Positions 40,175 through 58,110 of a stretch of 64,000 nucleotides of DNA are shown piece after piece; within the stretch, counting starts at the first letter, position 1; each line of letters starts with the position of its first letter. The stretch lies in UHGV virus genome UHGV-0076294. One strand, given 5' to 3'. The translations under genes and the position numbers were made by a program. The notes below the pieces were generated by a model. That model saw only the letters and a list, made by a program, of their open reading frames with translations. It ran no database searches and had not been told where the DNA came from. The stretch is from a virus.

Positions 40175-43100
40175 TTAACCCGCACGTCTAACGTTAAGCT
40201 GTCGTGCTGGCTGTTCAACGGACATTTGTCGTGATGCTGAGCCTGCTGGTGCCATAGGTTGGGTCGATACGGTGTTTTGTACCGGCTGCGGACGTTGTTT
40301 AAGAATCGTGACAATCTCTCTGAGATACCCCGCCGATTCTTTCGCAACAGCCAACTGCTGGACACTAATCGGATCACCGCTACTGAGTGTAGGCCCGTTT
40401 TGTGCATCAGAAGTAACCGCAGGTGCCGGTTTACTCGTTGCTGCTACGCGCTGCACAGCGCCTTCTTTCACCTTCTCGACATCTTCTTCAGGCAACCCTT
40501 CGTTTCTAGCTCCAGCCGCAACGGTCTCCGCAATCGTAGAGGCGTCGCCGCCAGCACTACTACCGCCAGGTGACGGTACTGCCGGACCACCACTGGTTGC
40601 AGCTTTGACATTGTCTGCACCCATCGCACCTTTCTCTGCTAACGCATCGTCACGACGCGCAGCATTCGATGCGGGCAAGTTATCCGTCGCTCCAGAAATT
40701 GATGGATCGTTAGCTGCTCCTGCTGCTACCGCTGGAGAGGAGGCAACCGCAGGCGTTAGCCCTTTCACCATGTCTTTCGTTGAAGCTGGGTTAGCCGCAA
40801 TTTCGTTTGTCGCCACAGCACCCATACGGCGGTTCAGTTCATTAATAACTTCGCCAACAGTACGAATACGAACAATCTGTTCGCCTCGCATTTCGTAGAA
40901 GACTCCCTTATTACCTCTAAGGATTTGAGGAGTAATACCTTCTGCTTTGTCGGCTGGCATGTTCGGATTCTGCCGCCATGCATTAAGGAACTTCTTACCA
41001 CCGCCTGGACCCAAGAAGTGATACAGATACGCAACAGCCGGGGGCGGTTCTACACCACCCAGGTCTTTCTGCGCCTGCATGATATTATCACGAATAAACT
41101 GTACCCCGAGGATGGTATTTGCCCACGGGTCATACTGGTTTACTTGCGGAATACCGTACCGACGAGAATACCCCTTCATCATTCCAGACCACGTACTGTC
41201 GATGAACTGGAACAACCCTGCTGCTGACGCACCTGGGTTCTTGACGCCGTATCTGAAACCAGATTCAGCTTTCGCCATCGCAATCGCAATCGCAGGCGGA
41301 ACACCTAAGGTATTTGCGACATCTGCAATCATTGCTTTAACGCCTTCTACGTTAGGTGTCTTACCACTACCCAGTTTACTGATTGGATATTTCTCAGCCA
41401 AGGTTTTGTAATCACCTTCTTTGACGTCCCCGAGTTTAATCCCGGATTGGCCCGTAGAGAACTTCGCGTAATTGCTGATCCCCATCTCACCCACAACTTG
41501 AGATAAGTCACCCGGTGTACCGTAAGACGACCCACCGTTTGGCAAGTACCCATCGTTAGACGCTGTACCCCAATCAACGACACCTTTAAAGCGTTCTTTG
41601 CCATCTTCGTCGGTTTGGTACATTCTCGTCGCACGATCGGCTTTCTGCCACTTCGCACGTTTACCTGCTGCGGGAGTAGAGCGCAGGGTGTTACGAACAG
41701 CCAGGTCAGGTTCTTTTGACAGTTCTTTCAGGTTGGCAAGTTCAGTAGCAACAGAACCTGCATCAGTGTTTGCTTCCTCGCCTAGCGGGTTGAATGGAAT
41801 CTCCCACACGGACTGTCGAATACCGCCCTTCATGTTGTAAGCGCCACGAATCATCAACGCCAATTCGTACATGAACCCACCGGATACTTTCAATTCGGTA
41901 GGGTCTGCTTGCGGAATGTAACGTTTCAGACCAACGACGTAGGTCATATACGCCGGTAAGAAACGGTTGTAGAACCAGTTCTTACAACGCTCCTCTTTAG
42001 GACCACCTATCAAGTCAGGCGAGATAACCGCAATGGCTTCTTTCCAGTTGCCTTTATAGGTACAGTTCTTCACATCAATGTCTTTCAACACGTTCTTCTC
42101 TAACAACGTGAAAAGATTACGCGTTGTTTGGTTGATAGTAACCGCACCGTAGGTTTTCCACCTGACCGATTCCAGGTCTTCCAAATCGCTTTTCTTCGGT
42201 AATGAATGCCAGTCAACTTGGATTTGAACCTGCTCAGTCCCGTCTTCCCATCCTTCAACCTTCGCAACTTTCTCGTTACGTTCAGCATCCGCATTCGCCA
42301 ATACCTGACTGGTTTCAGCAACGGACGCAATTTTGTGGCCTTCGACAGCGTCACGCATACCTGAACGTTGTTTCCGTTTGTCGTCAGTACGCATGTTGAT
42401 TGACCGCCACACACGTTCCTGTGCTTCGACAACCTCTTCCCCTGACAAGAACTCTGCCGGAGTAAAGGTAACGAAATCCCACGCTTTAGAGAACCAACCC
42501 TGGTTAACTTTACGCGGGTCAGTCAACGAACGGAATTCCGCAGAATCTTTACCCATCTTCATTTTGTTGTAGAGGGTAATCATATCCGCTTTCGACACTT
42601 TCTTCGGATCACCAACATCTGCCAAAGCGATATCGTTATCCATAGACTTCAGTGCTGAAATCCAACGGAGGTAAATCGGTGCGAAACGTTGTAGCATAAA
42701 CGCAGTAAATGCTAACATCTCACCACGTTCTTCCAAGTTTACACCAAACCCTTCTGCGAGTTTCTTCACGTCTTCGGAAGACAAGCCACGTAATTGTGCT
42801 TCACCCCCTTCGGTATACGAGACGTAAGGTTTCAAAGCGTCTTCTAAATAACGGGCTTTCATACCGTCTTCAGAAGACCACTGGTCGTAGTCACGGAAAC
42901 CGTATTGTGCCAGACGCATATAGTCGAGGTACTGCGCTTTCACACGGGTAGCGCATTTATACGCCCAATAACCCAGACCAGCGGCAGTCGCACCGATCAC
43001 AATTGCAGGCCAACCCACCGCAGCTACCACCGTAGATGCAGCTGAGGCTACCGCAGTCACCGCCGGAACCGCTAAACGCTGTACGGCAAACTTACCAACA

Positions 43101-46100
43101 TTCCACGCTGCTTTACCGATGAACCCGGTAGGTTTAAAAATACCCCACTTCGCAACTTTACCCAGTATGGAACCCACCGTACCTAAGATACTCACGATTG
43201 GTCCTACTAACGGTAGCCCTTTGAGGAAGTCCATCACCCCGCCTTTACGTCCTTTCTGTTCGGCGGATTTCTTGGCTTTCTCTTCTTCCTTAGAACGTCT
43301 ACGACGACGGAAGAATTGGAAGTAGTCGCGTTTTTCATCATTGGCTGCCGGTTTGTTACGTTGTCCGAACTTACTGAACATCGTACGAATCAAGCCATCA
43401 GGCGCACCAGCACGTTCCGCAGAGTCACGCATGGTGTTAAACCAGGACATTTCCTGGAGGTTAACCATCCGGTTCAAACGTTCCAGTAATGCTGAACCAA
43501 CACTCTTCGCTTTCTGCTTACCTTTGTTGATAACGCGCCCTGCGCTATCCGTTGCGGTTTCGAAATCCTCCTTCGCTGCGTTAATCACGCGTGTTGGAGA
43601 AACCTTACCACGGGCGTATAAGTGTTGGCGGTAAAACTCAGCAACGTCATCGTCACGACCTGCTAAACGAGACTCCGCCCGATAACGTGTACCGATATCG
43701 TAGCGTGGATCACGGAAGCTATCCACCGTTTCGCCAAAGCGTCCACGGAAACGGTCAAACCACCCTTTACCCGCAGCACCCCAACGAGACAGTCTATCGC
43801 CAACACCCTGACGGAAACGTGAGAATCGGTCACGTTGTCTGCCTCGCCAATCCCGGAAACTCTGGAAATAGTCTTTAAACCCATCGCGGAAATCCTTAAC
43901 GCGGTTAAGCATCCCTTTGATAGATTTCGACCCAACGTTTTTCTCCAGTTGCTCCGTCCAGGATTCATCTTCAGGCTCACCATCTAAACGACGGTTAAGG
44001 AGTTTATAGATACGAATCAGGATATGGTTGGTCTTACGGCCATTCGACCAGGAGAACATGCTGAAACCGCCACCAGAACCCCCGTCCTTACGATTCTGCC
44101 ACCACCGGGTAAGCGGGTTGTCGGTCGCTAACTCTTTGAATTTCTCAAAGCCACGTTTTGCATTGTTCCACAAACGAGCAGGCATTCCGGTTACACGGGA
44201 AATCATGCTTTGTAAACGTGTTTTCTCACTGCCTTCAGGAATCTCGTTAAGCCACTCACGTGCTTTCTCAAAGATAGACGCTGCTCTTGGTGAAATTAGA
44301 CCAATAAGTTTCTTCGGTAAGTTAACAGCTTTGTTTACCGCTGTACCTGCTTTACCGGAGATATACTGGAACAGGGCCTGGAGTTTACCGCCTTTATAGA
44401 AGCGCAGTTTACCCGCAGCCGCTAAGTCCGCCGCTGCGAGAATCAAGTTCCCGGCTTCGTCAACAATATCACGACCCAGCTTAATGTCGTCTAACGAGCG
44501 GAGTTGTACCAGTTTGTTGGTTTTAGGGTCAGCCTGATAATACTCACCTGCCTCTAAACGGTTTCCTTGTAAAACAACATTGCCTTTCTCGTCGTAGATG
44601 TCTCGAACACCAAGAACGCCTTTCCCGAACGCTACTGCTGAATTCCAGCCTGTGGACAGCGTACCAGTAACTAAACCTTTCAGTCGTTCAAAAACACCTG
44701 GACCGTCAGAAGACCCACCGGAGAACTTCCCACGGATAAAACTGCCCAGTGACTGTAAACGCCCTTTTCCTCTCAGGAACATGTTCTTCGCAAAACGACC
44801 AGCGCCCGTACCGGTGTCCCAAAGTACGCCCGCCCAACGACGGAACAGCCCGCTTTCACCAAGCACAATGCGCTTACGTTTGCGTTTGTTGCCGGTACTA
44901 CCCGCGTCTTCGGATGCGACACCCTCACCGTCACGACCACCACCTAAGCTTGCCAACAGAATACCTTCTTCATCCATGTTCTTGACATGTTTCAGAATTT
45001 CCTGCACGGTGTTGGATTCGGATTTGTTACGGATAGCATCAACGATTCTATCAAACTGTTGCTCTAAACCCGCATTAGTGTCAGGCCGTTCGCTTAACAG
45101 TTCAACAAAGTTGGTGGATTTTTCACCGTAGAGGACAGCAGCGAGTTGTCGTGCTGACAGCCCACGGCCACCACGTCCACCTTTACCTCTAACGGTGTCG
45201 ATAGTCGACTCATCACCGGTTACGGAAGCGTCTACACCTAAACGACGCAAATAGTCACCTAACGCAGAACCGTTTTTCAGTTTGCGCTGGATTTCTTGTT
45301 CACGCGTTAACGAACGACCAGAGCGAGTTTTCCCCATGGCCAGGTCGTTGTATAGCGTATACGGATCGTTAATGTCTTTATCTACATCAAACCGATCGTT
45401 CTTCGCATCGTACTTAAAGATACCTGCGTCACGTAACGCATTCTCACCGTAGATAATTGAAGCTTCGTCTACCGTGTTTTGACGTGCACGAATTGTTGAC
45501 TGAATAGCTGAAATCTTACCAGCAATCTCATTGCTAAGTTCATGATGCCCACCAACCAGTTCCGCAGAACGGGCTTCTAAGACCGCCTGAATCGCTTCTA
45601 CCGCGTTTGCATTCATGTAACGATACATGTGCATCGGGTCTTTCAGCAGACTGCCTACGTCGAATGCCTTACCTTCAGACGCACGGGATTCGATATAGTC
45701 CGCCAGCGCCTGGCGAGTTTTCGAATCCAGAGTTTTGTCTTTGTCGATAAAGTCAACGGTTTCGTTAATGTACTGCTGTAAACGTTTACGCTGTTCGTCA
45801 TTAGCAACTGCCTTACGTACGCGATTGCCAATAACTTTACGATCCACCATACCTCGCGTGGTCAGGTCATAAACCTGATCGTGGTGTTCGCCATATCCAC
45901 GACGAATAGATTTGTTAATCTCCGTCAGCAAGGTCGGGATGACTTCCGTGATGCTAAGATATGCTTTACGGTCGAACTTCGCTGCTGCTGATAACGCCTC
46001 TGCTGAACGTTCTTCTAAAGCTAATCCCTCACGACGCAGCGGTGTCACTAACCCCATCTCGTGCATTAAACGGAAGACAGTGGCCAATGGACCATCTATC

Positions 46101-47308
46101 TCACCAGCTATCGCTGAGTTAGAGATAGAAGATAAGTTACCGAACCCGTAGCGTGCCAACTGAAGCCGTTTCATGACTTCTGGGTTCTTTTCTAACTCAC
46201 TGCGTGTCCAGTTCTGTAAACGTTCTACTTGCGGTTGTAAGAATCGTTTTGCTAACCAACCACCGGCAAACCCTGCGACTTTACCTCGGCTATTCGTACG
46301 ACGACGTTCTGGCGACAGTGTAGAACTGTCTTCCATGTCGAAGTCGTCTTCCTGACCCATTGACAGAACTTGTTCTAATAACCCACGTCCGTCACTGAAG
46401 ATATTCGAAATCTTTTTCTTCGCGTTCTCACGGATTTGTTCAATGAACGAATCTGCGTAACGTAAGGGGTTCATCCATTCAGCGGCTTTACGTTTTACGT
46501 TAGCCCAACGAATTTCAGAGAATTCCTCTTTTGCATAATCCGGCAACGCGGTGTTTTTAACAATCGCTTCAAGTGCCGGAGTGTTACGGCTAAACTCGTC
46601 CTGTTTAAGTTTAGCAATATCTTGCAATGCGAATAACGTACGGTATTGCAGCTCTAGCTGTTTACGCTGAACGTTAAGCATCACCCCGCGACTTAAACTG
46701 GTCGTCAGGTTAACGTCTTTCGCAATACCGATAACCGTCTGGAACAGCGCATCGGACTTCATGTCCTTGATGGTGTCACGAAGACGGTCTTCTACCATTC
46801 CTTCCTGAACTTCACGTTGTTGTTCAGGTGTTTGTGGGGTACCTGCAAAAACAGTGTCTAACTCACGATCCATTAACGCTTGTTTAGGATCGTAATTCCC
46901 GTAATCGTACTGGTCGCTTTTCGCCCATTTATCGATCTTACGGGTTACGCTGTCAGGCAAATACCGTTTTAGGGTTGGGCCTAATTGACGAGCTTGTGCC
47001 TTCACCACGCGGGAGGTCTTTTCAATCTCGTCTTTCGTATGGGCCAGAATGTCTTGACCTGCGGCTTTGACGTTCTTATAACCTTCATAAGCGTCAGACG
47101 CCGGTTTTGGCATTCCTTTTAAAATGACCTGATCACGTTTATTTTCGGGCCAGATAGTCGACAATGCCGACTTACGGGCAGCACGAAATGTGTCCATGAC
47201 CGGGTTACGCGATTGGTCTTGTTGACGAGGGGGCTCATCAAAATCGTCCCAGTCGTCCATGTTATCAAGATCGATTTCATCGAAATCGTCTTTACCTTTT
47301 TTAGCCAT
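40175..47308 (-). CDS. giant protein (2377 aa) with lytic transglycosylase (SLT) domain and central TM helices; ejection or tape-measure-like candidate
   Basis: SLT motif AIAMAKAESGFRYGVKNPGASAAGLFQFIDSTW in C-terminal third; highly acidic N-terminus (DDFDEIDLDNMDDWDDFDE); central hydrophobic helices; Ala/Pro/Gly-rich C-terminus. Confidence 0.8.
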   Translation of the reverse strand: MAKKGKDDFDEIDLDNMDDWDDFDEPPRQQDQSRNPVMDTFRAARKSALSTIWPENKRDQVILKGMPKPASDAYEGYKNVKAAGQDILAHTKDEIEKTSRVVKAQARQLGPTLKRYLPDSVTRKIDKWAKSDQYDYGNYDPKQALMDRELDTVFAGTPQTPEQQREVQEGMVEDRLRDTIKDMKSDALFQTVIGIAKDVNLTTSLSRGVMLNVQRKQLELQYRTLFALQDIAKLKQDEFSRNTPALEAIVKNTALPDYAKEEFSEIRWANVKRKAAEWMNPLRYADSFIEQIRENAKKKISNIFSDGRGLLEQVLSMGQEDDFDMEDSSTLSPERRRTNSRGKVAGFAGGWLAKRFLQPQVERLQNWTRSELEKNPEVMKRLQLARYGFGNLSSISNSAIAGEIDGPLATVFRLMHEMGLVTPLRREGLALEERSAEALSAAAKFDRKAYLSITEVIPTLLTEINKSIRRGYGEHHDQVYDLTTRGMVDRKVIGNRVRKAVANDEQRKRLQQYINETVDFIDKDKTLDSKTRQALADYIESRASEGKAFDVGSLLKDPMHMYRYMNANAVEAIQAVLEARSAELVGGHHELSNEIAGKISAIQSTIRARQNTVDEASIIYGENALRDAGIFKYDAKNDRFDVDKDINDPYTLYNDLAMGKTRSGRSLTREQEIQRKLKNGSALGDYLRRLGVDASVTGDESTIDTVRGKGGRGGRGLSARQLAAVLYGEKSTNFVELLSERPDTNAGLEQQFDRIVDAIRNKSESNTVQEILKHVKNMDEEGILLASLGGGRDGEGVASEDAGSTGNKRKRKRIVLGESGLFRRWAGVLWDTGTGAGRFAKNMFLRGKGRLQSLGSFIRGKFSGGSSDGPGVFERLKGLVTGTLSTGWNSAVAFGKGVLGVRDIYDEKGNVVLQGNRLEAGEYYQADPKTNKLVQLRSLDDIKLGRDIVDEAGNLILAAADLAAAGKLRFYKGGKLQALFQYISGKAGTAVNKAVNLPKKLIGLISPRAASIFEKAREWLNEIPEGSEKTRLQSMISRVTGMPARLWNNAKRGFEKFKELATDNPLTRWWQNRKDGGSGGGFSMFSWSNGRKTNHILIRIYKLLNRRLDGEPEDESWTEQLEKNVGSKSIKGMLNRVKDFRDGFKDYFQSFRDWRGRQRDRFSRFRQGVGDRLSRWGAAGKGWFDRFRGRFGETVDSFRDPRYDIGTRYRAESRLAGRDDDVAEFYRQHLYARGKVSPTRVINAAKEDFETATDSAGRVINKGKQKAKSVGSALLERLNRMVNLQEMSWFNTMRDSAERAGAPDGLIRTMFSKFGQRNKPAANDEKRDYFQFFRRRRRSKEEEKAKKSAEQKGRKGGVMDFLKGLPLVGPIVSILGTVGSILGKVAKWGIFKPTGFIGKAAWNVGKFAVQRLAVPAVTAVASAASTVVAAVGWPAIVIGATAAGLGYWAYKCATRVKAQYLDYMRLAQYGFRDYDQWSSEDGMKARYLEDALKPYVSYTEGGEAQLRGLSSEDVKKLAEGFGVNLEERGEMLAFTAFMLQRFAPIYLRWISALKSMDNDIALADVGDPKKVSKADMITLYNKMKMGKDSAEFRSLTDPRKVNQGWFSKAWDFVTFTPAEFLSGEEVVEAQERVWRSINMRTDDKRKQRSGMRDAVEGHKIASVAETSQVLANADAERNEKVAKVEGWEDGTEQVQIQVDWHSLPKKSDLEDLESVRWKTYGAVTINQTTRNLFTLLEKNVLKDIDVKNCTYKGNWKEAIAVISPDLIGGPKEERCKNWFYNRFLPAYMTYVVGLKRYIPQADPTELKVSGGFMYELALMIRGAYNMKGGIRQSVWEIPFNPLGEEANTDAGSVATELANLKELSKEPDLAVRNTLRSTPAAGKRAKWQKADRATRMYQTDEDGKERFKGVVDWGTASNDGYLPNGGSSYGTPGDLSQVVGEMGISNYAKFSTGQSGIKLGDVKEGDYKTLAEKYPISKLGSGKTPNVEGVKAMIADVANTLGVPPAIAIAMAKAESGFRYGVKNPGASAAGLFQFIDSTWSGMMKGYSRRYGIPQVNQYDPWANTILGVQFIRDNIMQAQKDLGGVEPPPAVAYLYHFLGPGGGKKFLNAWRQNPNMPADKAEGITPQILRGNKGVFYEMRGEQIVRIRTVGEVINELNRRMGAVATNEIAANPASTKDMVKGLTPAVASSPAVAAGAANDPSISGATDNLPASNAARRDDALAEKGAMGADNVKAATSGGPAVPSPGGSSAGGDASTIAETVAAGARNEGLPEEDVEKVKEGAVQRVAATSKPAPAVTSDAQNGPTLSSGDPISVQQLAVAKESAGYLREIVTILKQRPQPVQNTVSTQPMAPAGSASRQMSVEQPARQLNVRRAG

Positions 47309-47337
47309 AACGTTTAATCCGTATCAGGAGATTTAGC

Positions 47338-48963
47338 GTGAATAAACTTAATTGGGTTGACTTTTATCTGCTCAATGTAAACAAGTCTCTTGTGTCGCGA
47401 TTACGACCCGTCACGACCACAGATACTTTTCAAGGGTTGACAAAAAACTTTCACCCTGAAGGGTTGTACTCCACGGAGATTTTCGGTCTTACGGGAAGTG
47501 AAGCCCGAGACTCAACGTTTTCTTACATTGATATTAAATTAGATATCATTTCGCCGACGGTGTGTTTGGCGTTATTCCAACTAAAACAACTCTACGAAGA
47601 AATTTGTTCTGGAAAACGCTACGCAACCTGGAACGAAAAAGAAAAAGATTTTGAACCGGCTTTGCCTGGCGACGCTGGCGCAGATACCGGTTTTAACTTT
47701 TTCCTTAGTCACTACAACGACTTAAAACCCGGACGTAACGAATCGTTACAACGTGACGAAACGGTGGATTTCTTCGAGAAGTTCCGTCCCGTGAGTCTTA
47801 GCCGCTATGTTCTCGTATTACCCGCGGGTTTACGTGATTTGGTGGTTAGACAAGACGGTAGGGAACAGGAAGAGGAAATCGGTGGGTTATATCGTCGTTT
47901 GATTTCTTTGGCCAGGGCGATTCCTGACCGTGCTACACGGGTTGAATTAACGAACCCTGTGCGATGGAAACTCCAACAAACCTTTAACGAAATCTGGATG
48001 TACTTCTTTAACATCCAGGACGGTAAAGGAGGTTTCCAACGTCGTAAAGTGACGTCGCGTAAACTGATGAACGGGACACGTAACGTATTGTCCTCATTCT
48101 CCACAGGCTCTAAATGCATGGGGCGTGAGGATGCGATTCGACCGACCGACACCAAAATTGGTTTGTATCAGGGTCTGAAAGCGTTGCTACCTGTTGCGCA
48201 ATACCAGATACGTGAACGTTACCTCGGTAACATTCGTGCTGGCGATGGCAACCTTTATGGCGTAAACACCAAAACGCTTAAACGCGAGTTCTTGGAGGTT
48301 GGGGGTCGTGTTTACGACACCTTTACCACAGACGACGGTATCGAAACATTAATTAACCGGATGGAAGCTCGCGAGCTTCGTCATCAACCGTTAATGATTA
48401 ACGATACCCATTACGTCGCACTGGTCTACCAAGACAACAAACATTTTAAGGTGTTCTACGATATCGATGAACTGCCTAAAACGTTTGACCGTAAAAACGT
48501 CCACGGAATGACCCTGGTAGAATTACTCTACTTATCGGGTTACGAACTGTGGAACAACTATTTCGGTTTCGTTACGCGTTATCCCGTCACCGGTCGAGGC
48601 TCGACGTACTCATCGACCATAAGATTGGAGACCACCACGTCATCTTTATACCTAAAAGAACTGGAAGATGACTGGGAGACTGAAAAGCCACACGGAGCTA
48701 TCAGTTATCCTGACAGGTCGGTTCCAACCTTTGTTGAGTCGATGGCACCGCACCCGTCACGATTGGGTGGCTTAGGGGGTGACTACGATGGTGACACCGG
48801 TTCACTTAACGCGCCTATGTCGCAAGAAGCACTCGAGGAAAACCGTAACTGGATACACTCGAAGAACTACTGGTTCGATTCTGACGGGAATTTCAAAATC
48901 AATCCTGTCAACAACGTGATTAAACGTGCGACGCAAGCGTTATTAAAGAATCCAAAAGGCTAA
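47338..48963 (+). CDS. RNA polymerase beta-prime-like subunit, N-terminal fragment type, tentative
   Basis: GTG start after AGGAGA RBS. C-terminal ...TRYPVTGRG...APHPSRLGGLGGDYDGDTGSLNAPMSQEALEE parallels beta-prime NRAPTLH...LHP...[23 protein letters not shown]; motif position (~485 of 541) matches E. coli beta-prime (~460). Confidence 0.5.
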   Translation: MNKLNWVDFYLLNVNKSLVSRLRPVTTTDTFQGLTKNFHPEGLYSTEIFGLTGSEARDSTFSYIDIKLDIISPTVCLALFQLKQLYEEICSGKRYATWNEKEKDFEPALPGDAGADTGFNFFLSHYNDLKPGRNESLQRDETVDFFEKFRPVSLSRYVLVLPAGLRDLVVRQDGREQEEEIGGLYRRLISLARAIPDRATRVELTNPVRWKLQQTFNEIWMYFFNIQDGKGGFQRRKVTSRKLMNGTRNVLSSFSTGSKCMGREDAIRPTDTKIGLYQGLKALLPVAQYQIRERYLGNIRAGDGNLYGVNTKTLKREFLEVGGRVYDTFTTDDGIETLINRMEARELRHQPLMINDTHYVALVYQDNKHFKVFYDIDELPKTFDRKNVHGMTLVELLYLSGYELWNNYFGFVTRYPVTGRGSTYSSTIRLETTTSSLYLKELEDDWETEKPHGAISYPDRSVPTFVESMAPHPSRLGGLGGDYDGDTGSLNAPMSQEALEENRNWIHSKNYWFDSDGNFKINPVNNVIKRATQALLKNPKG

Positions 48964-48966
48964 TCA

Positions 48967-51900
48967 ATGCTGCTCATTAAACAGTTTAACCAACGCTTCT
49001 CTGTGCGTAAAACAGACGAGTTTGGTAATCCGAGGATTATCCCGCTCGAGAAGCTCCAGATACCACGAGGCTCTATACTGCACGTCGTGGATCTCGATCA
49101 GGTGGTCTTAGCGCCACCTGCTACGCTGGAAATCATCCAGCCGTTGGAAAAACCTGCACAAATTCGCCACCACTTTAAACTTCCCGAAGAAGGGATCAGT
49201 GGGCATCCACGTAACAAACCTGTGCAGGGGCAAGAACGTGCTATCTTTGCGTACCATCGCGCTAACCGTCCAATTCGTCGCCTGACTTCAGACGACCTGA
49301 TTCGTAAAGACTTAAAAGTTCTCCTTATCGAGAACTACACACCGATGTTATCGCATTACTACTATCCAGACACTCAGTTAGCCTGGTACGATAGACTGCG
49401 TAACATCCAGCTGTTAATGACTAACCAGTTCAAATACGACACGCAAGAATACATGCGTCAAAACTACTTCGTGATTGAGCTGGGGTCAACGTTACCGTCT
49501 TTCCAGAAGTTCCAAACGACGTATAACGATCGTGTTAAAAGCAAGATTGAAAAGTTCCAGGACTTTAACCTGTTGTGGTTATTGGAACTGTTCGCTTGGG
49601 CATACGGTAAACAGTCCGATTCTCTGTTTGCAGGAATGGACTTAACGCAACTGTCTCGAATGAACTTCATCTTCACCCACAACAGCGGCTTTACGTCGAT
49701 GAACATGGGTGTCGTGGAGAAGATGCGTAAATCGTCCGGTGGTCGTTTAAGTGACGATCAAATGGCCAGGATGTTCTATCGTACGTTAGTGCGTGTAATG
49801 ACACAAGCACCGTCTAATGCGTACGAAGCTGAATTCCTGACACCGGAAGGTGATGAACGTATCTTTGTTAAGGACATCGAAGAGGATACCGTTGACGTCG
49901 TTGACGATACAGACGTTGTTAACGACGCTGTGGTTGAATCGGATAACGCTTTCGATGAAAAAGAAGACCTCGTTATTGAGGAGCCGAAAGAAGACGTTAA
50001 GCCGACGACTATCGTTATCGAAAAAACGATTGCTCACGATGACATTATCAAACAGGAAGCGCAGAAACTGGCTGAGGCGGGCCGCTTAAGCTCCAAAGCG
50101 TATCAGTTCCTGTCTGATTCGACCAAACGTTTCGTTCAGTTACCAAACCCGTACAACCCGAAAGAGACTTACGGCGAAGCATTAACCATTCACGAAAAAG
50201 ACATTGCCGTGAAAGCGGAACCGAAGAAAGTCCAGCGACTGGTTACGGATGAAGGTTGGGCAGAAAACGTCACCGACCAAATGGTGAAACAATACAACCA
50301 GACCATGATGAGTAAAGACGTGCTGGCAGCAGTCGCCAGCTCGCAGCGTCTTGGTTTGGCTATTCACAACCACACGATCGAGAAAGAGATTTCCGTTACG
50401 GGAACTATCGAACACCACACCCTGCGAGTTCAACCGATTGGTGGTGAACCGACGACAGTGCGTTTCTCTATCCCTGGTTTAACCGAAGACGGTACCTGGG
50501 TAGCAAACGGTGTTGAATACACCATGCGTCGTCAGCGTGTAGACGTGCCGATTCGTAAGGTCGCCCCAGACACCGTAGCGTTAACTACCGCTTACGGTAA
50601 AAACTTCGTACGTCGTAGTGACAAAGTCGCAAACGACTACGGCCGTTGGTTAACGAACGCGATTATCACGCGTGCCGTAGACCCGACCAACACGGAGATC
50701 ACAGACGCACGACTCGCGAACGTTTTCGATCCTACTGAGAAACTTCCTCGTCAGTACACGGAGATTGCACGTCGTATCGCCAGCTTCAATGCAGGCGGGT
50801 ATATGTGGAACTTCGATTATAAAGAAGCGGTTAACTTCTTTAATGACGAACAACTTACTGACGCAAATAACGTTGAGATGTTGCCGGTTGCGAAACGTCC
50901 GCGCAGTGAAGTTATTGTGGTGATGGATACCAAGTCCATGCTCTATACCGTTAAAGGTAAAGAGTGTACACCACTGGGTACCATCTTGGAAGTGCTTGGT
51001 TTCAGTAGCCAGAAAGCGCCAAGAGAAATGACTGAGCTTTCACTGATGGGCAAATCGCTCTCACTGGGCTTCATCTTCTCGTTCTATTTAGGTCTGCAAG
51101 GGATGCTTAAACATTTCGGCATTCAGTACGAAATCGTCCCTGTTGGCCAACGTGTAGATAAGAGCACGTACGATTCTATTATTCGTCTCCAGGACAGTAA
51201 GTTCCTGGTAACGTGTGATAACGATCAGCAACGAATGATTCTACACGGTCTGGATAAGTACCTGAAACACCTGGTGGCTTATACCGAGTCCGAAGTCGAC
51301 CGCGAAGACATTTACCTGAACTTAATACGTGATGCAGATGGGCTAACCCCACGCTACATCAACGAGCTGAAACAAATGCGGGCCGCGTTTGTTGATGACA
51401 TGCACGCACGTATCCTCAGGAAAATGGGTGAACCGGAAACCTTTATCGGGCTATTGGAACGTTCTAACGAACTGTTACAAACCGACCACTCTTTACCGGA
51501 GATTAACGGTGATGAGATGATGTTCTTAGGGAACCAACGTATTTCCTACCACATCTACACTGCGATGGTCAGGGCGATGCGTAACTACAACAACGCACCG
51601 AACAGTAACCGTAAGTTCGAGCTTACTCAGGACATGATTTGGGGCGCAATTAACTCCGACCCGTCTGTTCTGTTAGCGCCGGGTGCTAACCCTATCCAGT
51701 CGATTAAAGAGAAAGACGTTATCACCATGGGGGGTACGGGCGGCCGTAACCGTAAAACAATGGTTTATCACACGCGTGAGTTCCAACCGAGTGACCTGGG
51801 TATTGTTTCCGGTAACACGGTGGATAACGGTGATGTAGGTATTACTGCTTTCGCCACTAACAACCCACGTTTCGATACCGTTGACGGCACAACCTATAAA

Positions 51901-53133
51901 CGGGATGAAAAGAAACTGAAACCGAGCGACACTCTGTCATTTATTGACGGTCTCGTGCCGGATACCCTGATGGATGACGCTAAACGTCAAAACTTCGTTG
52001 GGATTCAGTTAGGTTCTGCCACCAGTTGCAACGGCGCTACCACTACCCCTTATCGTACCGAACAGGAGAAATTTGTCGCTCACCGTACGTCGGTGAAACA
52101 CGCACGCGTTATTGATAAAGCAGGTAAAATCACCGGTCTGTCTAAAGACCATATCGAAATTACGTACGAAGATGGAAGTAAAGAAGCCTTTCCTCTAGGG
52201 CGCTGGTTCGGCCCCCACGAAGGTACCTTCTATCCGCACACCCTGGTGACTCGCTGGAAAGCCGGTGACAAACTCCCGGCCGGGGCAGTCATCACTTATA
52301 ACGAGCAACACTTTGAACCCGATATCTACGACCCTACTCAGGTTTCCTGGAAAAACGGGGTGCTGGCTACCGTCGCTTTAATCGAGGCTGAAGAAGTAAT
52401 CGAAGACTCCAATGCTATTTCTGAACGGTTCGCGAAGAAAATGGTTGGGCAGGTTACTAAGCTGAAAGAAGTGGTGATTAACAGCAACCAGATGCTCCTG
52501 GAAATCGTTAACGAAGGGGAACACGTTGACGTCGACACAATCCTATGCACATTTACTGACGACCTTACGGGGGATATGAGTACCTTTAGTAAGGAAGCAG
52601 CACAAACGTTGCAAAGTTTAAGTTCGTACGCACCTCGTGCTGGGGTTCGTGGTATCGTGGATAAAATCGAAGTCGTGTATCACGGTGAAACCGAAGACAT
52701 GACGCCTTCACTGGCAGAACTGGTACGCAAATACGATCGTATTCGTCGTAAAGCAGCGTTGGCTGTTAATCGTGGCGATCCGGTATCAGGGAGTGTTAAT
52801 GGGGATTACCGTGTAGAGGGTGTACCGTTAGCCTTTAACTCGCTTTGTGTTCGATTCTTTATTACGCACGAAGTTGAAATGGCCGCAGCGGATAAGATGG
52901 TTATTGCTAACCAGCTGAAAACCACTGTACAAGAAGTGATGTACGGGGAAAACAAAACAGAAGATGGCGACGACATTGACATTTTGTTCGGTCGTGATTC
53001 TGTCGACGCACGTATTGTAGGTTCTATCCAACGAATCGGTACCGCAAATGCTGTGGGTGAACAAGCAGGGATTCTTATCGGTCGTATTCTCGACGGCGAG
53101 TCCGTGCCTGAGTTACCAGCGACACTTAAATAA
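48967..53133 (+). CDS. large hypothetical protein (1388 aa), possibly another RNAP subunit or virion protein
   Basis: Starts 3 nt after the beta-prime-like gene; acidic low-complexity insert (DTVDVVDDTDVVNDAVVESDNAFDEKEDL); no canonical beta or beta-prime motif recognised by eye. Confidence 0.6.
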   Translation: MLLIKQFNQRFSVRKTDEFGNPRIIPLEKLQIPRGSILHVVDLDQVVLAPPATLEIIQPLEKPAQIRHHFKLPEEGISGHPRNKPVQGQERAIFAYHRANRPIRRLTSDDLIRKDLKVLLIENYTPMLSHYYYPDTQLAWYDRLRNIQLLMTNQFKYDTQEYMRQNYFVIELGSTLPSFQKFQTTYNDRVKSKIEKFQDFNLLWLLELFAWAYGKQSDSLFAGMDLTQLSRMNFIFTHNSGFTSMNMGVVEKMRKSSGGRLSDDQMARMFYRTLVRVMTQAPSNAYEAEFLTPEGDERIFVKDIEEDTVDVVDDTDVVNDAVVESDNAFDEKEDLVIEEPKEDVKPTTIVIEKTIAHDDIIKQEAQKLAEAGRLSSKAYQFLSDSTKRFVQLPNPYNPKETYGEALTIHEKDIAVKAEPKKVQRLVTDEGWAENVTDQMVKQYNQTMMSKDVLAAVASSQRLGLAIHNHTIEKEISVTGTIEHHTLRVQPIGGEPTTVRFSIPGLTEDGTWVANGVEYTMRRQRVDVPIRKVAPDTVALTTAYGKNFVRRSDKVANDYGRWLTNAIITRAVDPTNTEITDARLANVFDPTEKLPRQYTEIARRIASFNAGGYMWNFDYKEAVNFFNDEQLTDANNVEMLPVAKRPRSEVIVVMDTKSMLYTVKGKECTPLGTILEVLGFSSQKAPREMTELSLMGKSLSLGFIFSFYLGLQGMLKHFGIQYEIVPVGQRVDKSTYDSIIRLQDSKFLVTCDNDQQRMILHGLDKYLKHLVAYTESEVDREDIYLNLIRDADGLTPRYINELKQMRAAFVDDMHARILRKMGEPETFIGLLERSNELLQTDHSLPEINGDEMMFLGNQRISYHIYTAMVRAMRNYNNAPNSNRKFELTQDMIWGAINSDPSVLLAPGANPIQSIKEKDVITMGGTGGRNRKTMVYHTREFQPSDLGIVSGNTVDNGDVGITAFATNNPRFDTVDGTTYKRDEKKLKPSDTLSFIDGLVPDTLMDDAKRQNFVGIQLGSATSCNGATTTPYRTEQEKFVAHRTSVKHARVIDKAGKITGLSKDHIEITYEDGSKEAFPLGRWFGPHEGTFYPHTLVTRWKAGDKLPAGAVITYNEQHFEPDIYDPTQVSWKNGVLATVALIEAEEVIEDSNAISERFAKKMVGQVTKLKEVVINSNQMLLEIVNEGEHVDVDTILCTFTDDLTGDMSTFSKEAAQTLQSLSSYAPRAGVRGIVDKIEVVYHGETEDMTPSLAELVRKYDRIRRKAALAVNRGDPVSGSVNGDYRVEGVPLAFNSLCVRFFITHEVEMAAADKMVIANQLKTTVQEVMYGENKTEDGDDIDILFGRDSVDARIVGSIQRIGTANAVGEQAGILIGRILDGESVPELPATLK

Positions 53134-53180
53134 TCTCAAGGGGTGGGTCGCTCCCACCCTGATAAACTCCGGAGTAGAGA

Positions 53181-53474
53181 ATGTCTATTTTAGATAAAAT
53201 CAAACAGCGACACGGTATTCCGACTGGGAAAAATATTACCCAGCAAAGCGTGGAAGGCTATAGCCCTATCCAACGTACTAACTACGTGTCTTTGGGTAAC
53301 ACGGTTGAACTGACGACCGAAATCGTGCACGGATTGATTCGTGGCAATTCTGGAATGTCTGACCGTATCGGCGATCAGAAACTGCTGAAACGCGATATCG
53401 CTGACCTGGTGGGAGCTCGTTTGTACACGAAGCTTCAGGACGCCATCACCACCAACAAAGAGGCTAAACAATGA
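53181..53474 (+). CDS. hypothetical protein
   Basis: 97-aa ORF; RBS CGGAG. Confidence 0.5.
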   Translation: MSILDKIKQRHGIPTGKNITQQSVEGYSPIQRTNYVSLGNTVELTTEIVHGLIRGNSGMSDRIGDQKLLKRDIADLVGARLYTKLQDAITTNKEAKQ

Positions 53475-54931
53475 TCAGTTTATACTCGCTGAACGCGGTT
53501 ACCAACGCCATGAAGCTGTGCAAACAGCACAACATTCAACTCGGCACCGACGTTGACTCTCCGGTTGACCTGTTAAACCGTGCGGTAGACCCATCGCGTG
53601 TTTTCGATACCACCATTACTGACGAACAGTTCTTCCAAGAATTGCCAGCAATCACTCAGCTGAAACGTCCGACGGAGGCAACGTCAGAAGCATCCGTTAT
53701 CCGTGACGGTGCCATTGAGCCAGAAGCGCTGCGTGTTGACGATCATGAAACTACGCTGTTCGAACTGAAGAACATGGCAATTCAACGCTGCAACGGGATG
53801 CTTGATTTCGCCCGTAACGTGGTACAGCCGTTCGTTCAGTTGGTTATTCAGAACAACGTTATCGACGAAGTTAAACCGTTGGTAGAAGACTGGAACCTGA
53901 TTCCGGTGGGTATCGACAGCTGTGTTGATTCTCCAGTTGTCCAGGCGCTGGTTCAGGAAATCGCTAACCCGATGGGTAACGGGACGACTTACGACCCGAT
54001 TAATTTCGACGTTCCAACCAACATCGAAATCCCAGAAACCGGTGTTAAGGCGTACGACGAATTAGTACGTAGCCTGCTTAACGATTTGGATATTAGTATT
54101 TACGATGCGGCTAAACTGATCCTGGCCGGTAACAACACCGTACCAGTTGCAAGCAACGCACCGATGATTCTGAAAGAGCGTGTGCTGGTTCTGCTGCTGT
54201 CTTCCTACTACATCGAACGTCCTTGGCCTGACTCAGGCGTTGACGCTCTGAAGTGGAAAGCAGAGATGGGTCGTGCTTACTACACCTCTATCGGTTGGGT
54301 TTACGGTTTCGAAAAAGAAATCCTGAACCGTGTCGCGACAGGTAACATCATCTACAGCTACGACACCGATAAGAAAGACGTGTACATCTGTCAGGAAACG
54401 ATGGATGACTATCTGTCTAAAGGTGGTATCGTTGAAGGTCTGCTGGGTGCTATCTATCTGATGGACGAAGGCGACTATAACGTTTCTGCGCGCGTTCCTT
54501 CGCTGCTGGAAAACCAGAATACGTACGTCGACGCTTATAACCGTCGTGCGATTATTACGCAGAAGAAAAACGAGCAGGACTGGGTAACACGTAACCGTCA
54601 GTCACTGAAAACAGCATTCTCTCTGGCTATCGACCAGCTTGACCAGGGATACTTCGATAACGGAGAAGACCAGCGTACGCGTGAAGATGTGAAGCGTTGG
54701 GTCATGGCAAGTTGCGACACCTTCTTTAGCAATGCTGATGACGACATCACGCTCTTTATTATCCAAACCGCGTGTAACGACGTGTTCCGCGTATGGGAAA
54801 TTGGCCCACTGATGCGGACGATTCACCAGGCGATGGTGGATAATCAAGACCCGTCACAAGCAGCAACCAGTTGGATGATTGACTACGTTCTGGACTGGAT
54901 TTCAGGTTCTGTGTTTGTTGACAAACTCTAA
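53471..54931 (+). CDS. hypothetical protein
   Basis: 486-aa ORF; start overlaps previous stop (ATGA). Confidence 0.55.
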   Translation: MISLYSLNAVTNAMKLCKQHNIQLGTDVDSPVDLLNRAVDPSRVFDTTITDEQFFQELPAITQLKRPTEATSEASVIRDGAIEPEALRVDDHETTLFELKNMAIQRCNGMLDFARNVVQPFVQLVIQNNVIDEVKPLVEDWNLIPVGIDSCVDSPVVQALVQEIANPMGNGTTYDPINFDVPTNIEIPETGVKAYDELVRSLLNDLDISIYDAAKLILAGNNTVPVASNAPMILKERVLVLLLSSYYIERPWPDSGVDALKWKAEMGRAYYTSIGWVYGFEKEILNRVATGNIIYSYDTDKKDVYICQETMDDYLSKGGIVEGLLGAIYLMDEGDYNVSARVPSLLENQNTYVDAYNRRAIITQKKNEQDWVTRNRQSLKTAFSLAIDQLDQGYFDNGEDQRTREDVKRWVMASCDTFFSNADDDITLFIIQTACNDVFRVWEIGPLMRTIHQAMVDNQDPSQAATSWMIDYVLDWISGSVFVDKL

Positions 54932-54948
54932 TGCAATAGGAGGTGATC

Positions 54949-55677
54949 GTGAGTGCGATTGAAACAGCCCGTCGTGATCCCACTAAGATTCATGCGGACT
55001 TGGTAAATAACGGCACGGTCACCACTACCAAAGGGGGATGTTACATTTACATCCCCGTTGGGTTTGTGGCGAAAGAGTTGGCGGTTATTTCTTCTACGGT
55101 AACGATTGTAGGTATTTTTGCTATCTCAACGGACCGTAAAACTTACGGGGTTTCCAGTGTCACTACACTGATTGAGATTACCCCAACGGCGTTTGAAGAG
55201 ATTGACGTCTTTGGCGTCCCTTATTACGAATTTCGTTTTGACCCCGGCACAGTGGTTTTCCCCAACTGCAATTTACAGGTGTTATCCGCACCGATATACA
55301 ACATTGCGTCGTATATTTACGACTTTGGTAACCGTCCTTTCTGGTTTACCGCTTACGACGATGCTGAACTATTAGCACCGGATAAGGTAAAGCGATGGAA
55401 CGGTTTTACTGTATTTGCCGATCAGATTACCGCTGACGTTTATGCTGCACACACGCAGCGTAAAGTGGGTGATCCAAAAACGTTTTTCCGTTACACCTTG
55501 AAAAAAGACAGTGACTTAAACAACCCTGTCCAATTCATCCCACTACGTAGTGGGTCTCTTAACAAAACGTCGAGACTGGCGAAGCTTGCAGACGTAGAAC
55601 TGAAACGTGGTATTCGTTCTGCACTACAAGTTGACCCAGTACGTGCCGAACCGCTCGAAGATTTGTTTATGAGGTAA
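54949..55677 (+). CDS. hypothetical protein
   Basis: GTG 54949 lies 5 nt after AGGAGG RBS (ORF track begins 54943); 242 aa. Confidence 0.5.
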   Translation: MSAIETARRDPTKIHADLVNNGTVTTTKGGCYIYIPVGFVAKELAVISSTVTIVGIFAISTDRKTYGVSSVTTLIEITPTAFEEIDVFGVPYYEFRFDPGTVVFPNCNLQVLSAPIYNIASYIYDFGNRPFWFTAYDDAELLAPDKVKRWNGFTVFADQITADVYAAHTQRKVGDPKTFFRYTLKKDSDLNNPVQFIPLRSGSLNKTSRLAKLADVELKRGIRSALQVDPVRAEPLEDLFMR

Positions 55678-55708
55678 TTTACCTTTTTACTTTCACTCGG
55701 GGAAAACA

Positions 55709-56512
55709 ATGGACAACTTGACCCTACGTTACAATTGCGTAGCGTTAGCCGGTGTTAATGCTCCAGCCACTCTGGAGAAAGACGCGGATGGTTATTACCG
55801 CGTATTATTGGGTGCTCTGAATATTTTTAACTCGGAAGGGATTTTCTACGCCTATAACGAGTCTAAGCACGTATTCGAGCGCTCTAACATTTTCATGCGT
55901 AAAGTAAAAGCCGGTAACCTGTTCGGGGAAGAAGACCACCCTGCACCAGAACCGGGAATGACCGAAGCGCAGTGGATTGACCGTAACGAATGGATTGAGA
56001 CGAAAAACGTCTGTATGCACATTCGTGAAGTCGAAGTTATTCCAACCGATCAGACCTGTAACGGTTTGCCAGTAATGGAAATCTGGGGCTGGATTAAACC
56101 GAACCGTGAACGTGGTCCGTATCTGGCAGAAGCGTTAGAGAATCCACATCAAAACGTTTGCTTCTCTCTGCGTGCTATCGTACGTGAAGGGTATGTTGGT
56201 GGGGTGAAAACGCGTCGTCTGGATCGTCTGGTCACCTTCGACTGGGTTATCGAAGATGGGCTTCAGATTTGCAACAAATACTCCGCGATTCAGCGTGGTA
56301 GCAAAGTGGCTCAGGAATCTACCCGTGTCCTGCTGGACCGTCGTGTATCGCTTCAGGCGCTGGAAGACATCCTGCGTAATCCAAACACCACTTCAACTAT
56401 CGCAACGGAATCTCGTCGCGGTGAAGTCCGTGCTTTGGCTCAGGAGTATCTGGCAATTGCCAACAAACGCACTAACCTGCGTGTTATGGGCTTAGGGAAC
56501 GGGAAGTGGTAA
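55709..56512 (+). CDS. hypothetical protein
   Basis: 267-aa ORF; GGGGAAAA RBS. Confidence 0.55.
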   Translation: MDNLTLRYNCVALAGVNAPATLEKDADGYYRVLLGALNIFNSEGIFYAYNESKHVFERSNIFMRKVKAGNLFGEEDHPAPEPGMTEAQWIDRNEWIETKNVCMHIREVEVIPTDQTCNGLPVMEIWGWIKPNRERGPYLAEALENPHQNVCFSLRAIVREGYVGGVKTRRLDRLVTFDWVIEDGLQICNKYSAIQRGSKVAQESTRVLLDRRVSLQALEDILRNPNTTSTIATESRRGEVRALAQEYLAIANKRTNLRVMGLGNGKW

Positions 56513-57151
56513 ATGGCTGATAATGTCGAACCTTCGCTGGTAAAGTGGTTGGAGCAACAGTTGCCACGTACCGCGAAAAAAGTTTCGTTGAAAAAACTGG
56601 ATACTGCTCCACTCCATATCAGCGATAAAAAAATCCCGGTCTTTACGCCCAGGATTCCTCATAGCGTTTACAGCGACGAAGACAAAACGGTTCCCCGTAT
56701 TTGTTGTTCTGTCGATTTAGAAAAATGTTTGCGCGGCGTTCGACGTTACTTCGTACCGAGTCCTTATGAGGACCTGAGACACCGTTACTATCTTCATGCA
56801 TTTGATGAGCGCGACGTTGTTCAACCATCGGTAGAACTCTCAAGTGAACCTTTCCGTGCGAACGAGGTTTGGATTGTTCCACATCGTTTATCGAACTGGG
56901 AAATTAAACCCACCGTTATCGGTGAGTTGCGTTTAGTTCGATTAGCAGATAACGGATATAAACACACACTCGCTGTTGCATTACACGAAGACGTTCGTTT
57001 AAACAGTAACCAGCTGTTAAAGGCAGGTAAGTTTTACGAAATCACGGTGACTATCTCTGAACGGGAACCGTTGATTGTTGTTAGTGATGCGACAGAAATC
57101 TCGCGTGGTATTTTTGACGCTGCGTTAAACGAATACACTGTAACTCCATAA
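56513..57151 (+). CDS. hypothetical protein
   Basis: 212-aa ORF starting directly after previous stop. Confidence 0.55.
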   Translation: MADNVEPSLVKWLEQQLPRTAKKVSLKKLDTAPLHISDKKIPVFTPRIPHSVYSDEDKTVPRICCSVDLEKCLRGVRRYFVPSPYEDLRHRYYLHAFDERDVVQPSVELSSEPFRANEVWIVPHRLSNWEIKPTVIGELRLVRLADNGYKHTLAVALHEDVRLNSNQLLKAGKFYEITVTISEREPLIVVSDATEISRGIFDAALNEYTVTP

Positions 57152-57200
57152 TCGCCCAGTTCATGGTCTGCAACCCGAATTTGTCGATTGTGAGGGAAGC

Positions 57201-57500
57201 ATGAAAGTGGTTAACATTGCCATACCTCCGACTTTGCAAACTTTAACGCCTGAGGAATTGAAAGCACTAACAATCTTTGCCGTCCAAGGACGTGCAGGAA
57301 AGGAGGTGCTTTCCGAAATACTCGCTGAACGTTTCGACACCAAACGTAAAGTAAACAACATTGTCGCAGGTATTTCACAACAAGATATCGCAAAGTTTTA
57401 TTGCGACGTCCGTAAAGCTGGAACCGAAATCGACTTTACGCGTACGTATCTCTTGTTAACTGAACCTTGTCGGTTCATTCTTTCGATTAAGCAGTCTTAA
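57201..57500 (+). CDS. hypothetical protein
   Basis: 99-aa ORF; GAGGGAAG RBS. Confidence 0.5.
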   Translation: MKVVNIAIPPTLQTLTPEELKALTIFAVQGRAGKEVLSEILAERFDTKRKVNNIVAGISQQDIAKFYCDVRKAGTEIDFTRTYLLLTEPCRFILSIKQS

Positions 57501-57558
57501 TTTTTTACAATTTCTACCGTTTACTGTGTCGGAGGAAAATTACAAAGGATAACCAAAT

Positions 57559-58110
57559 ATGTTTAATTTAGACAGCGACGGCGTTTTCGCAAACTGGCGT
57601 GGTTACGTTTTGGAACACCACCTTAAAGGAATGAGTATAGAAGAATTTCACGGAATGCCAGAGTTGCATCGTCGTGCTTTGATGCGGGAAATCTATTTAA
57701 ACGACCCGGATCTTTTTTATAAACTAGACCCGATACCCGAGGCCGTTAAAATCCTCGAAACAGTAGAAAGTCTGGGAGAATGTTGGGCGATTTTAACGTC
57801 AGGTTCAGAAGATCATTTCGACCACGACCGTGTTGTAGAAAGCAAAAAATTATTCTTCGAAAAACACTTCGGTGTCCCTGGCCATAAAGTCATCGTGACA
57901 ACTTCCTCTGCGGAGAAAGCGACCTACGCGGAGAAGGGAAGATTGTTGGTTGACGATTATGGTCGTAATTGCCGTGAGTGGGTGTTAAAGGGCGGGACCG
58001 CAATTTATACGCGGACGAACGAACCTGAAGTCGATGCGATTTGCCGACAAATCAGGACGTTTGCAGAAAGTCCCTTAGAATACTCAGGTCAAATTTTGTG
58101 CGTGCAGTAA
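57559..58110 (+). CDS. HAD-superfamily hydrolase, 5'(3')-deoxyribonucleotidase-like
   Basis: N-terminal MFNLDSDGVF (HAD motif I D-x-D-G-V) and later LVDDYG (motif IV-like); 183 aa. Confidence 0.6.
   Translation: MFNLDSDGVFANWRGYVLEHHLKGMSIEEFHGMPELHRRALMREIYLNDPDLFYKLDPIPEAVKILETVESLGECWAILTSGSEDHFDHDRVVESKKLFFEKHFGVPGHKVIVTTSSAEKATYAEKGRLLVDDYGRNCREWVLKGGTAIYTRTNEPEVDAICRQIRTFAESPLEYSGQILCVQ

Follow-up and report, generated by a model that had tools for sequence, protein, structure and literature searches.

The virus genome UHGV-0076294 contains, within the 64,000-nucleotide (nt) stretch analysed here (the window), two closely spaced genes that raise a specific question: do their products belong to a multisubunit RNA polymerase (RNAP) that has been split into pieces, as in phiKZ-like phages? 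The question arose from an inspection of the letters and open reading frames (ORFs) carried out ahead of any database search, referred to below as the sequence-only reading. It drew attention to a DYDGD motif in a protein of 541 amino acids (aa), which was likened to the catalytic centre of the bacterial beta-prime subunit, and to a 1388-aa ORF immediately downstream. The answer reached here is that both ORFs are almost certainly late structural genes, encoding two of the five polypeptides that make up the virion RNA polymerase (vRNAP) of a jumbo phage similar to SPN3US and phiEaH2.

The layout on which the question was founded is present in the window. In the ORF table, the 541-aa frame opens with a GTG start codon, preceded 7 nt upstream by the Shine-Dalgarno sequence AGGAG. 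The frame contains the peptide quoted in the sequence-only reading and places DYDGD at residues 482–486. Three bases (48964–48966) separate its stop codon from the 1388-aa frame, which runs from an ATG start over positions 48967–53133 of the same (+) strand.

Homology, fold, conserved catalytic residues, orthology and synteny were all observed for this gene pair. The 541-aa protein matches phrog_2986, a family annotated as “RNA polymerase beta subunit”, from end to end with an expect value (E) of 1.9e-235, and it shares 86% aa identity with gp240 of SPN3US over 99% of its length. Residues D482, D484, G485 and D486 do not vary across 41 aligned homologues, whose identities go down to 37%, and the same holds for T413, R414, P416 and G419 of a “TRYPVTG” block. 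With HMMER, the DYDGD stretch aligned to (N)ADFDGD in the beta-prime subunits of plastids and bacteria, at chain positions ~455–512. Both the proposed parallel with the double-psi beta-barrel active site of beta-prime and the similar distance of the motif from the N-terminus are thereby upheld.

A family profile made from the 41-homologue alignment (profile A1) was then searched against the PDB. It matched the beta-prime subunit of the AR9 non-virion RNA polymerase (nvRNAP) over residues 35–255 (E 6e-14), and plastid, cyanobacterial and bacterial beta-prime subunits over residues 154–295 (E 3e-10 to 1e-6/5e-6). The collinear blocks of this profile include VLPxxLR, LYRR and GKxGxxR...GxRxV (GTRNV), together with the active site at residues 468–513.

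Short DxDGD motifs recur among several barrel polymerases, and the E-values of single-sequence searches of the PDB were weak. Both facts would suit a reading of DYDGD as a chance motif, or as the signature of an unrelated enzyme with a double-psi barrel, for instance an RNA-dependent RNAP or a single-chain RNAP of the YonO or crAss type. However, the matches to beta-prime are collinear and extend over several regions (residues 35–255 and 468–513), all of the structural matches listed are beta-prime chains, and the gene for a partner homologous to beta begins 3 nt further on. Matches in several collinear blocks, together with the neighbouring beta gene, led to the exclusion of this reading, which has practically no probability left. 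DYDGD is, by its conservation, a genuine motif and no chance match.

Structure prediction points to the same subunit. The AlphaFold2 (AF2) model of the 541-aa protein has a mean predicted local distance difference test score (pLDDT) of 81.9 and contains six strands between residues 409 and 491. A Foldseek search with this model returned 574 PDB matches at E <= 1e-3, and those listed consist entirely of beta-prime, gamma or RpoC1 chains, with a probability of 1.00, the best being AR9 nvRNAP beta-prime (E 4e-15). The predicted fold is therefore beta-prime-like, and the motif aligns to beta-prime rather than to another family. The 541-aa protein represents the N-terminal third of a beta-prime homologue, with its clamp-core motifs and the predicted barrel that bears the DYDGD triad.

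The 1388-aa ORF was a different matter in the sequence-only reading, which coupled it to the 541-aa gene but found no motif in it that could be placed. The coupling stands, while the second statement does not, as the protein is a beta-like subunit with collinear beta blocks. It matches phrog_3148, an RNA polymerase subunit family, from end to end (E 0), and is 77% identical in aa sequence to SPN3US gp241 over the full length. A narrower profile of 22 sequences (A2) gave a weak match to Thermus beta (E 7.7e-4), and a further homologue search with the A2 alignment yielded no protein beyond the same 33. Residues 401–1388 were used as the query in an exhaustive search of cluster representatives. 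This search retrieved 2059 representatives at E <= 1e-3, which defines a family of >2000 representatives at 50% identity.

From the latter search, 37 sequences were used to build a wider profile (A5), which was run against the PDB. Profile A5 matched Thermus beta at E 2.8e-14 through four blocks occurring in order at beta residues 118–136, 396–464, 530–656 and 822–871. The blocks are PLMTEDGSFIING (PLMTxxGxFxxNG), NPL...GPGG, HDDANR/QAVP and VGDKLANRHGNKG (GDKxxxxxxxKG). With this profile, HMMER aligned residues 1307–1319 (AADKMVIANQLKT) to “VGDKLANRHGNKGV” in the 822–871 segment of Thermus beta; the wider set of sequences was needed for this GDK...K block to align. Two lysines in the block, K1310 and K1318, are invariant in the family. 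Residues E1146, D1147 and S1148 are likewise invariant in the 22-sequence family alignment, and we take the first two, from their position and the motif, to be the likely equivalents of E813 and D814 of E. coli beta.

The AF2 model of residues 381–1388 (pLDDT 71.7; predicted template-modelling score, pTM, 0.70) leads to the same subunit. Every top structural match listed for it is a bacterial RNAP beta subunit (chain C), with ~1000–1100 alignment columns and a best E of 5.9e-15. The two partners are consistent with one another in that the 541-aa family profile matches beta-prime, the 1388-aa family profile matches beta, and the predicted structures match beta-prime and beta chains only, among the matches listed. 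The 1388-aa protein is thus a beta homologue whose conserved beta regions run from the protrusion to the GDK...K motif, following a phage-specific extension of ~380 aa.

Several results weigh against the assignment of these proteins to RNAP. A Pfam scan of both the 541-aa and the 1388-aa protein at E <= 1 found no RNAP model. Searches of the PDB with single sequences yielded a marginal match for the 541-aa protein (E 0.06) and irrelevant laccase matches only for the 1388-aa protein, and a sub-profile confined to the final 284 residues of that 1388-aa family gave no match to beta. In addition, global template-modelling (TM) scores of the models against RNAP subunits were low (0.3–0.37), and the catalytic loops, including the aspartate-triad loop of the 541-aa protein, were modelled with low confidence. 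The low TM-scores are expected of a multi-domain subunit that is modelled alone. Because the Pfam scan was empty and the single-sequence searches were marginal or irrelevant, the assignment rests on profiles, predicted folds and orthology.

Some of these same features would suit another explanation, namely that both proteins are catalytically dead RNAP relics, which the phage keeps only for a structural or ejection role in the head. Divergence from cellular RNAP is strong and lies below Pfam thresholds, the beta motif reads AADK and QLK in place of GDK and HGNKG, and the models of the catalytic loops are of low confidence. Nevertheless, homologues down to 28–37% identity show no change in the aspartate triad or in the two beta lysines, and selection for catalysis therefore follows. 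Infection of the phiKZ type is insensitive to rifampicin (PMC13282480), with early genes transcribed by the injected vRNAP, and SPN3US gp241, gp218 and gp244 are essential. In view of the invariant catalytic residues and the essential SPN3US genes, inactive relics were judged unlikely, indeed very improbable; the invariant residues would fit an active enzyme.

A third possibility concerns the identity of the polymerase rather than its activity. Both genes could encode subunits of the nvRNAP, a second phage polymerase that is produced after infection, serves middle and late genes and is not packaged. The closest solved structure to the 541-aa protein is indeed AR9 nvRNAP beta-prime, but no vRNAP structure is present among the PDB matches, which makes an nvRNAP chain the expected nearest match among phages. 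The two proteins share 77–86% identity with SPN3US gp240 and gp241, both present in purified heads, whereas the SPN3US nvRNAP genes, gp34 and gp35, show no significant similarity to either the 541-aa or the 1388-aa protein. The surroundings are also those of structural genes, with an SLT protein, a prohead protease and a sheath protein. An nvRNAP paralogue was rejected on grounds of orthology and the dissimilarity of gp34 and gp35, and is highly unlikely. The likeness to the fragmented RNAP subunits of phiKZ-like phages, as first suspected for the 541-aa protein, is borne out by the PHROG families, the 86% and 77% orthology with SPN3US, profile A1 and the fold matches.

Virion packaging, pre-assembly, ejection and early transcription would follow by analogy with work on SPN3US and phiKZ. 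In SPN3US, gp240 and gp241 were assigned to the vRNAP through proteomics and the genetics of amber mutants; gp240, gp241, gp218, gp42 and gp244 are head proteins, and knockout of gp241, gp218 or gp244 results in the loss of all five vRNAP subunits from virions (PMC5105663; PMC5694885). For example, particles of a gp241 amber mutant are devoid of any vRNAP subunit (PMC5105663). Mutant particles of this kind appear intact yet are non-infectious, the three genes are essential, and the vRNAP complex is thought to assemble ahead of its entry into the prohead (PMC5105663; PMC5694885). In phiKZ-type infection, early genes are transcribed by the injected vRNAP, which needs no host RNAP and has no homologues of alpha, omega or sigma (PMC8287921; PMC13282480); partners of these three types are not known for the enzyme (PMC13282480).

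By the same analogy, the five pieces in the present phage would assemble into an RNAP that lacks sigma, alpha and omega before entering the prohead. The complex would be packaged with the DNA and later ejected into the host, where it would transcribe early phage genes without recourse to host RNAP.

If so, other pieces of the enzyme should be encoded by the phage, and the sequence-only reading had suggested a search for further beta and beta-prime fragments elsewhere in the genome. Two such genes, one for the beta C-terminal fragment and one candidate for the beta-prime C-terminal fragment, are present in the window (Table 1), while the middle piece of beta-prime lies outside of it. The first encodes a 222-aa protein with 86% aa identity to SPN3US gp218 and a match to phrog_3233, “RNA polymerase beta subunit”, at E 3.1e-93. 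Related-locus searches with this protein, using the single sequence and then an alignment, returned close relatives only; the diverse homologues used for a family profile of 15 sequences (A7) were gathered from phage records. Profile A7 matched residues 1159–1309 of E. coli beta, weakly (E 0.014), and the alignment falls exactly where the 1388-aa protein stops, in collinear fashion.

The second gene encodes a 244-aa protein that is 86% identical in aa sequence to SPN3US gp244 and matches phrog_2926, “virion structural protein”. It has been proposed in the literature that the gp244 family constitutes the C-terminal fragment of beta-prime, with a weak HHpred match (E 0.05) (PMC5105663). PDB searches with a profile of the 244-aa family (13 sequences) and with the single sequence retrieved no beta-prime chain. 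The place of this candidate subunit in the polymerase would rest on the co-dependence seen in virion proteomics, and not on homology.

A gene resembling gp42, the middle fragment of beta-prime (beta-prime M), was not found in the 64-kb window. An orthologue with 72% aa identity to gp42 is present, however, in the closed genome NZ_CP134650.1, which is 98.8% identical. All five vRNAP pieces are accounted for in this manner, with four in the window and the gp42-like one in NZ_CP134650.1.

Table 1. Coordinates of vRNAP genes, protein regions and motifs in the window of UHGV-0076294.
Feature	Position	Strand	Relationship or basis
vRNAP beta-prime N-terminal fragment gene, 541 aa	47338-48963	+	Orthologue of SPN3US gp240, phiKZ gp180
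DYDGD codons (residues 482-486), putative Mg-binding aspartate triad of the beta-prime active site	48781-48795	+	Invariance, HMMER alignment
N-terminal extension of the beta-like protein, ~residues 1-380, with acidic linker ~300-345	48967-50106	+	No detectable similarity to cellular beta
Beta-like body, residues 381-1388	50107-53133	+	Orthologue of SPN3US gp241, phiKZ gp178
E1146-D1147-S1148, likely counterpart of the beta “ED” acidic pair	52402-52410	+	Invariant in family
D1309-K1310 through K1318 (AADKMVIANQLKT), counterpart of beta GDKxxxRHGNKG	52891-52920	+	HMMER alignment
vRNAP beta C-terminal fragment gene, 222 aa	25951-26619	+	Orthologue of SPN3US gp218
Candidate fifth vRNAP subunit gene, 244 aa	54943-55677	+	Orthologue of SPN3US gp244, phiKZ gp176

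The N-terminal extension is a distinctive part of the beta-like subunit. In profile searches, the similarity of the 1388-aa protein to beta begins near residue 500, and in nearly all of the full-length family representatives listed the matched part starts at residue 330–590. The ~380 residues of the extension are conserved, many of them invariant, and include the acidic linker toward their end. Searches of Pfam and of PDB sequences found nothing in residues ~1–380, and relatives of the extension were not detectable outside these phages. A role in head targeting has been hypothesised for the corresponding extension of SPN3US gp241; the homologous region in phage 201phi2-1 is cleaved as a 275-aa propeptide, whereas gp241 itself is unprocessed (PMC5694885). 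A more speculative proposal is that the extension is a new module with a function beyond prohead targeting. It might, for instance, substitute for the missing alpha-dimer platform, or enable the polymerase to unfold for its passage through the tail and refold afterwards. We regard this as rather unlikely.

A separate observation on the 1388-aa protein concerns its database relatives. Proteins of 961–1398 aa from the Salmonella phages SPFM12, SPFM1 and SPFM6 score E 1e-127 to 1e-142 against it, yet their best BLAST alignments span 2–5% of its length. Frameshifted or low-quality stretches in these records may explain the mismatch between score and coverage.

The genes that surround the pair are those of a virion assembly region. 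The divergent neighbour, noted as a giant SLT virion protein in the sequence-only reading, is confirmed as a 2377-aa ORF on the (–) strand (40175–47308), in which Pfam identifies an SLT domain at residues 1997–2082 (E 2.3e-8). Only 29 nt (47309–47337) lie between its start codon and that of the 541-aa gene, and no sigma-70-like promoter was found in this gap. It follows that the promoters of the SLT gene and of the beta-prime N gene must either be very compact or lie inside coding regions. A scan of positions 47000–58000 for sigma-70 promoters and intrinsic terminators gave counts no greater than those of shuffled sequences, and was uninformative on operon structure. No introns or homing endonucleases were found to interrupt either gene; there is no insertion, and the ORFs are collinear with those of SPN3US.

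Further downstream, the neighbours include an S80 prohead protease (Pfam, E 1.1e-82) and a sheath protein of the phiKZ gp29 type, and from the SLT giant as far as the tail sheath the genes are arranged as in SPN3US gp239–gp256. The 5.8-kb region that holds the two vRNAP genes has ~76% nucleotide identity to the genomes of the Erwinia phages Stratton, phiEaH2 and Asesino and to those of SPN3US-type Salmonella phages. These sequences place the source of the window among the jumbo phages related to phiKZ, in the SPN3US/phiEaH2 group. A 486-aa ORF (53471–54931), located between the beta-like gene and the gene for the 244-aa subunit, has a match to phrog_3841 and sits where SPN3US carries gp243.

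Among characterised systems, SPN3US is the closest. The orthologous pairs (86% and 77% identity) are within 4–13 residues of each other in length and have the same catalytic residues. The order of SLT giant, beta-prime N, beta N, gp242, gp243, gp244 and protease is shared as well. The two phages are nonetheless separate species, with ~76% nucleotide identity and a genome of ~222 kb here versus 240 kb in SPN3US, and the intergenic gap of 3 nt in the present phage is 18 nt in SPN3US. Public records label the genes of the present phage “hypothetical protein”.

The phiKZ vRNAP (gp180, gp178, gp149, gp80 and gp176) is a more distant counterpart. It comprises the same families and has the same split architecture, and its injection along with the DNA renders infection independent of host RNAP (PMC8287921; PMC13282480). 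Homologues from Phikzvirus share ~33% identity with the 541-aa protein and ~36% with the 222-aa protein. It is a distant relative with another host, and the gene neighbourhood is conserved only in part.

The nvRNAPs of AR9 (PDB 7S00/7S01) and phiKZ resemble the present polymerase in being multisubunit RNAPs with split beta and beta-prime subunits and no alpha, omega or sigma. They differ in that they are paralogous, are produced post-infection without being packaged, are split at other points and employ a dedicated promoter-recognition subunit. Sequence identity between AR9 nvRNAP beta-prime and the 541-aa protein is 13–14%.

Cellular and plastid beta-prime (RpoC, RpoC1/gamma) and beta (RpoB) subunits have matching folds and collinear motifs. 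The motifs held in common with cellular RNAP are the aspartate triad, GKxGRxR...GRS, a beta block of the HDDANR type and GDK...K. Cyanobacteria and plastids likewise split beta-prime slightly past the active site. Identity to the cellular subunits is 11–14%, however, and the subunits in the window are cut into more pieces. The beta subunit of the window carries the extra N-terminal domain of ~380 aa, and the 541-aa protein, as read from its sequence, has no cysteine cluster at the position of the N-terminal zinc finger of beta-prime.

With respect to novelty, the family to which this gene pair belongs, its split architecture, its location in the virion and its essentiality are already known from published work. 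Split vRNAPs are a hallmark of phiKZ-related jumbo phages, and the present pair carries little weight as a discovery. Its value lies in annotation, as both genes could be named, as vRNAP beta-prime N and beta N. In a closed E. coli record, both vRNAP genes are labelled “hypothetical protein” by the NCBI Prokaryotic Genome Annotation Pipeline (PGAP), and Pfam has no model that reaches them. The annotation gap spans the entire family of >2000 cluster representatives at 50% identity. Since no vRNAP chain occurs among the PDB matches, the family is still a worthwhile structural target, to which this window adds nothing special.

Within the phage collection searched, no phage exceeding 80% nucleotide identity to this one was present (best ~76%). 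The exact 541-aa protein falls in a cluster of 207 members and the exact 1388-aa protein in one of 717. Cluster members derive from hundreds of assemblies of enterobacterial isolates, namely Salmonella enterica (many serovars), Shigella flexneri, E. coli and Enterobacter ludwigii; the contigs measure 220–227 kb, and the proteins are identical or nearly so and always labelled hypothetical. Two closed records describe the phage as a circular plasmid. One is NZ_CP173450.1 (221,873 bp; 97.9% identity), from E. coli isolated from urine in Egypt, and the other is NZ_CP134650.1 (222,441 bp), from Enterobacter ludwigii of a gull cloaca. The occurrence of this phage in isolate assemblies and plasmid records suggests either carrier-state or pseudolysogenic persistence, or recurrent contamination.

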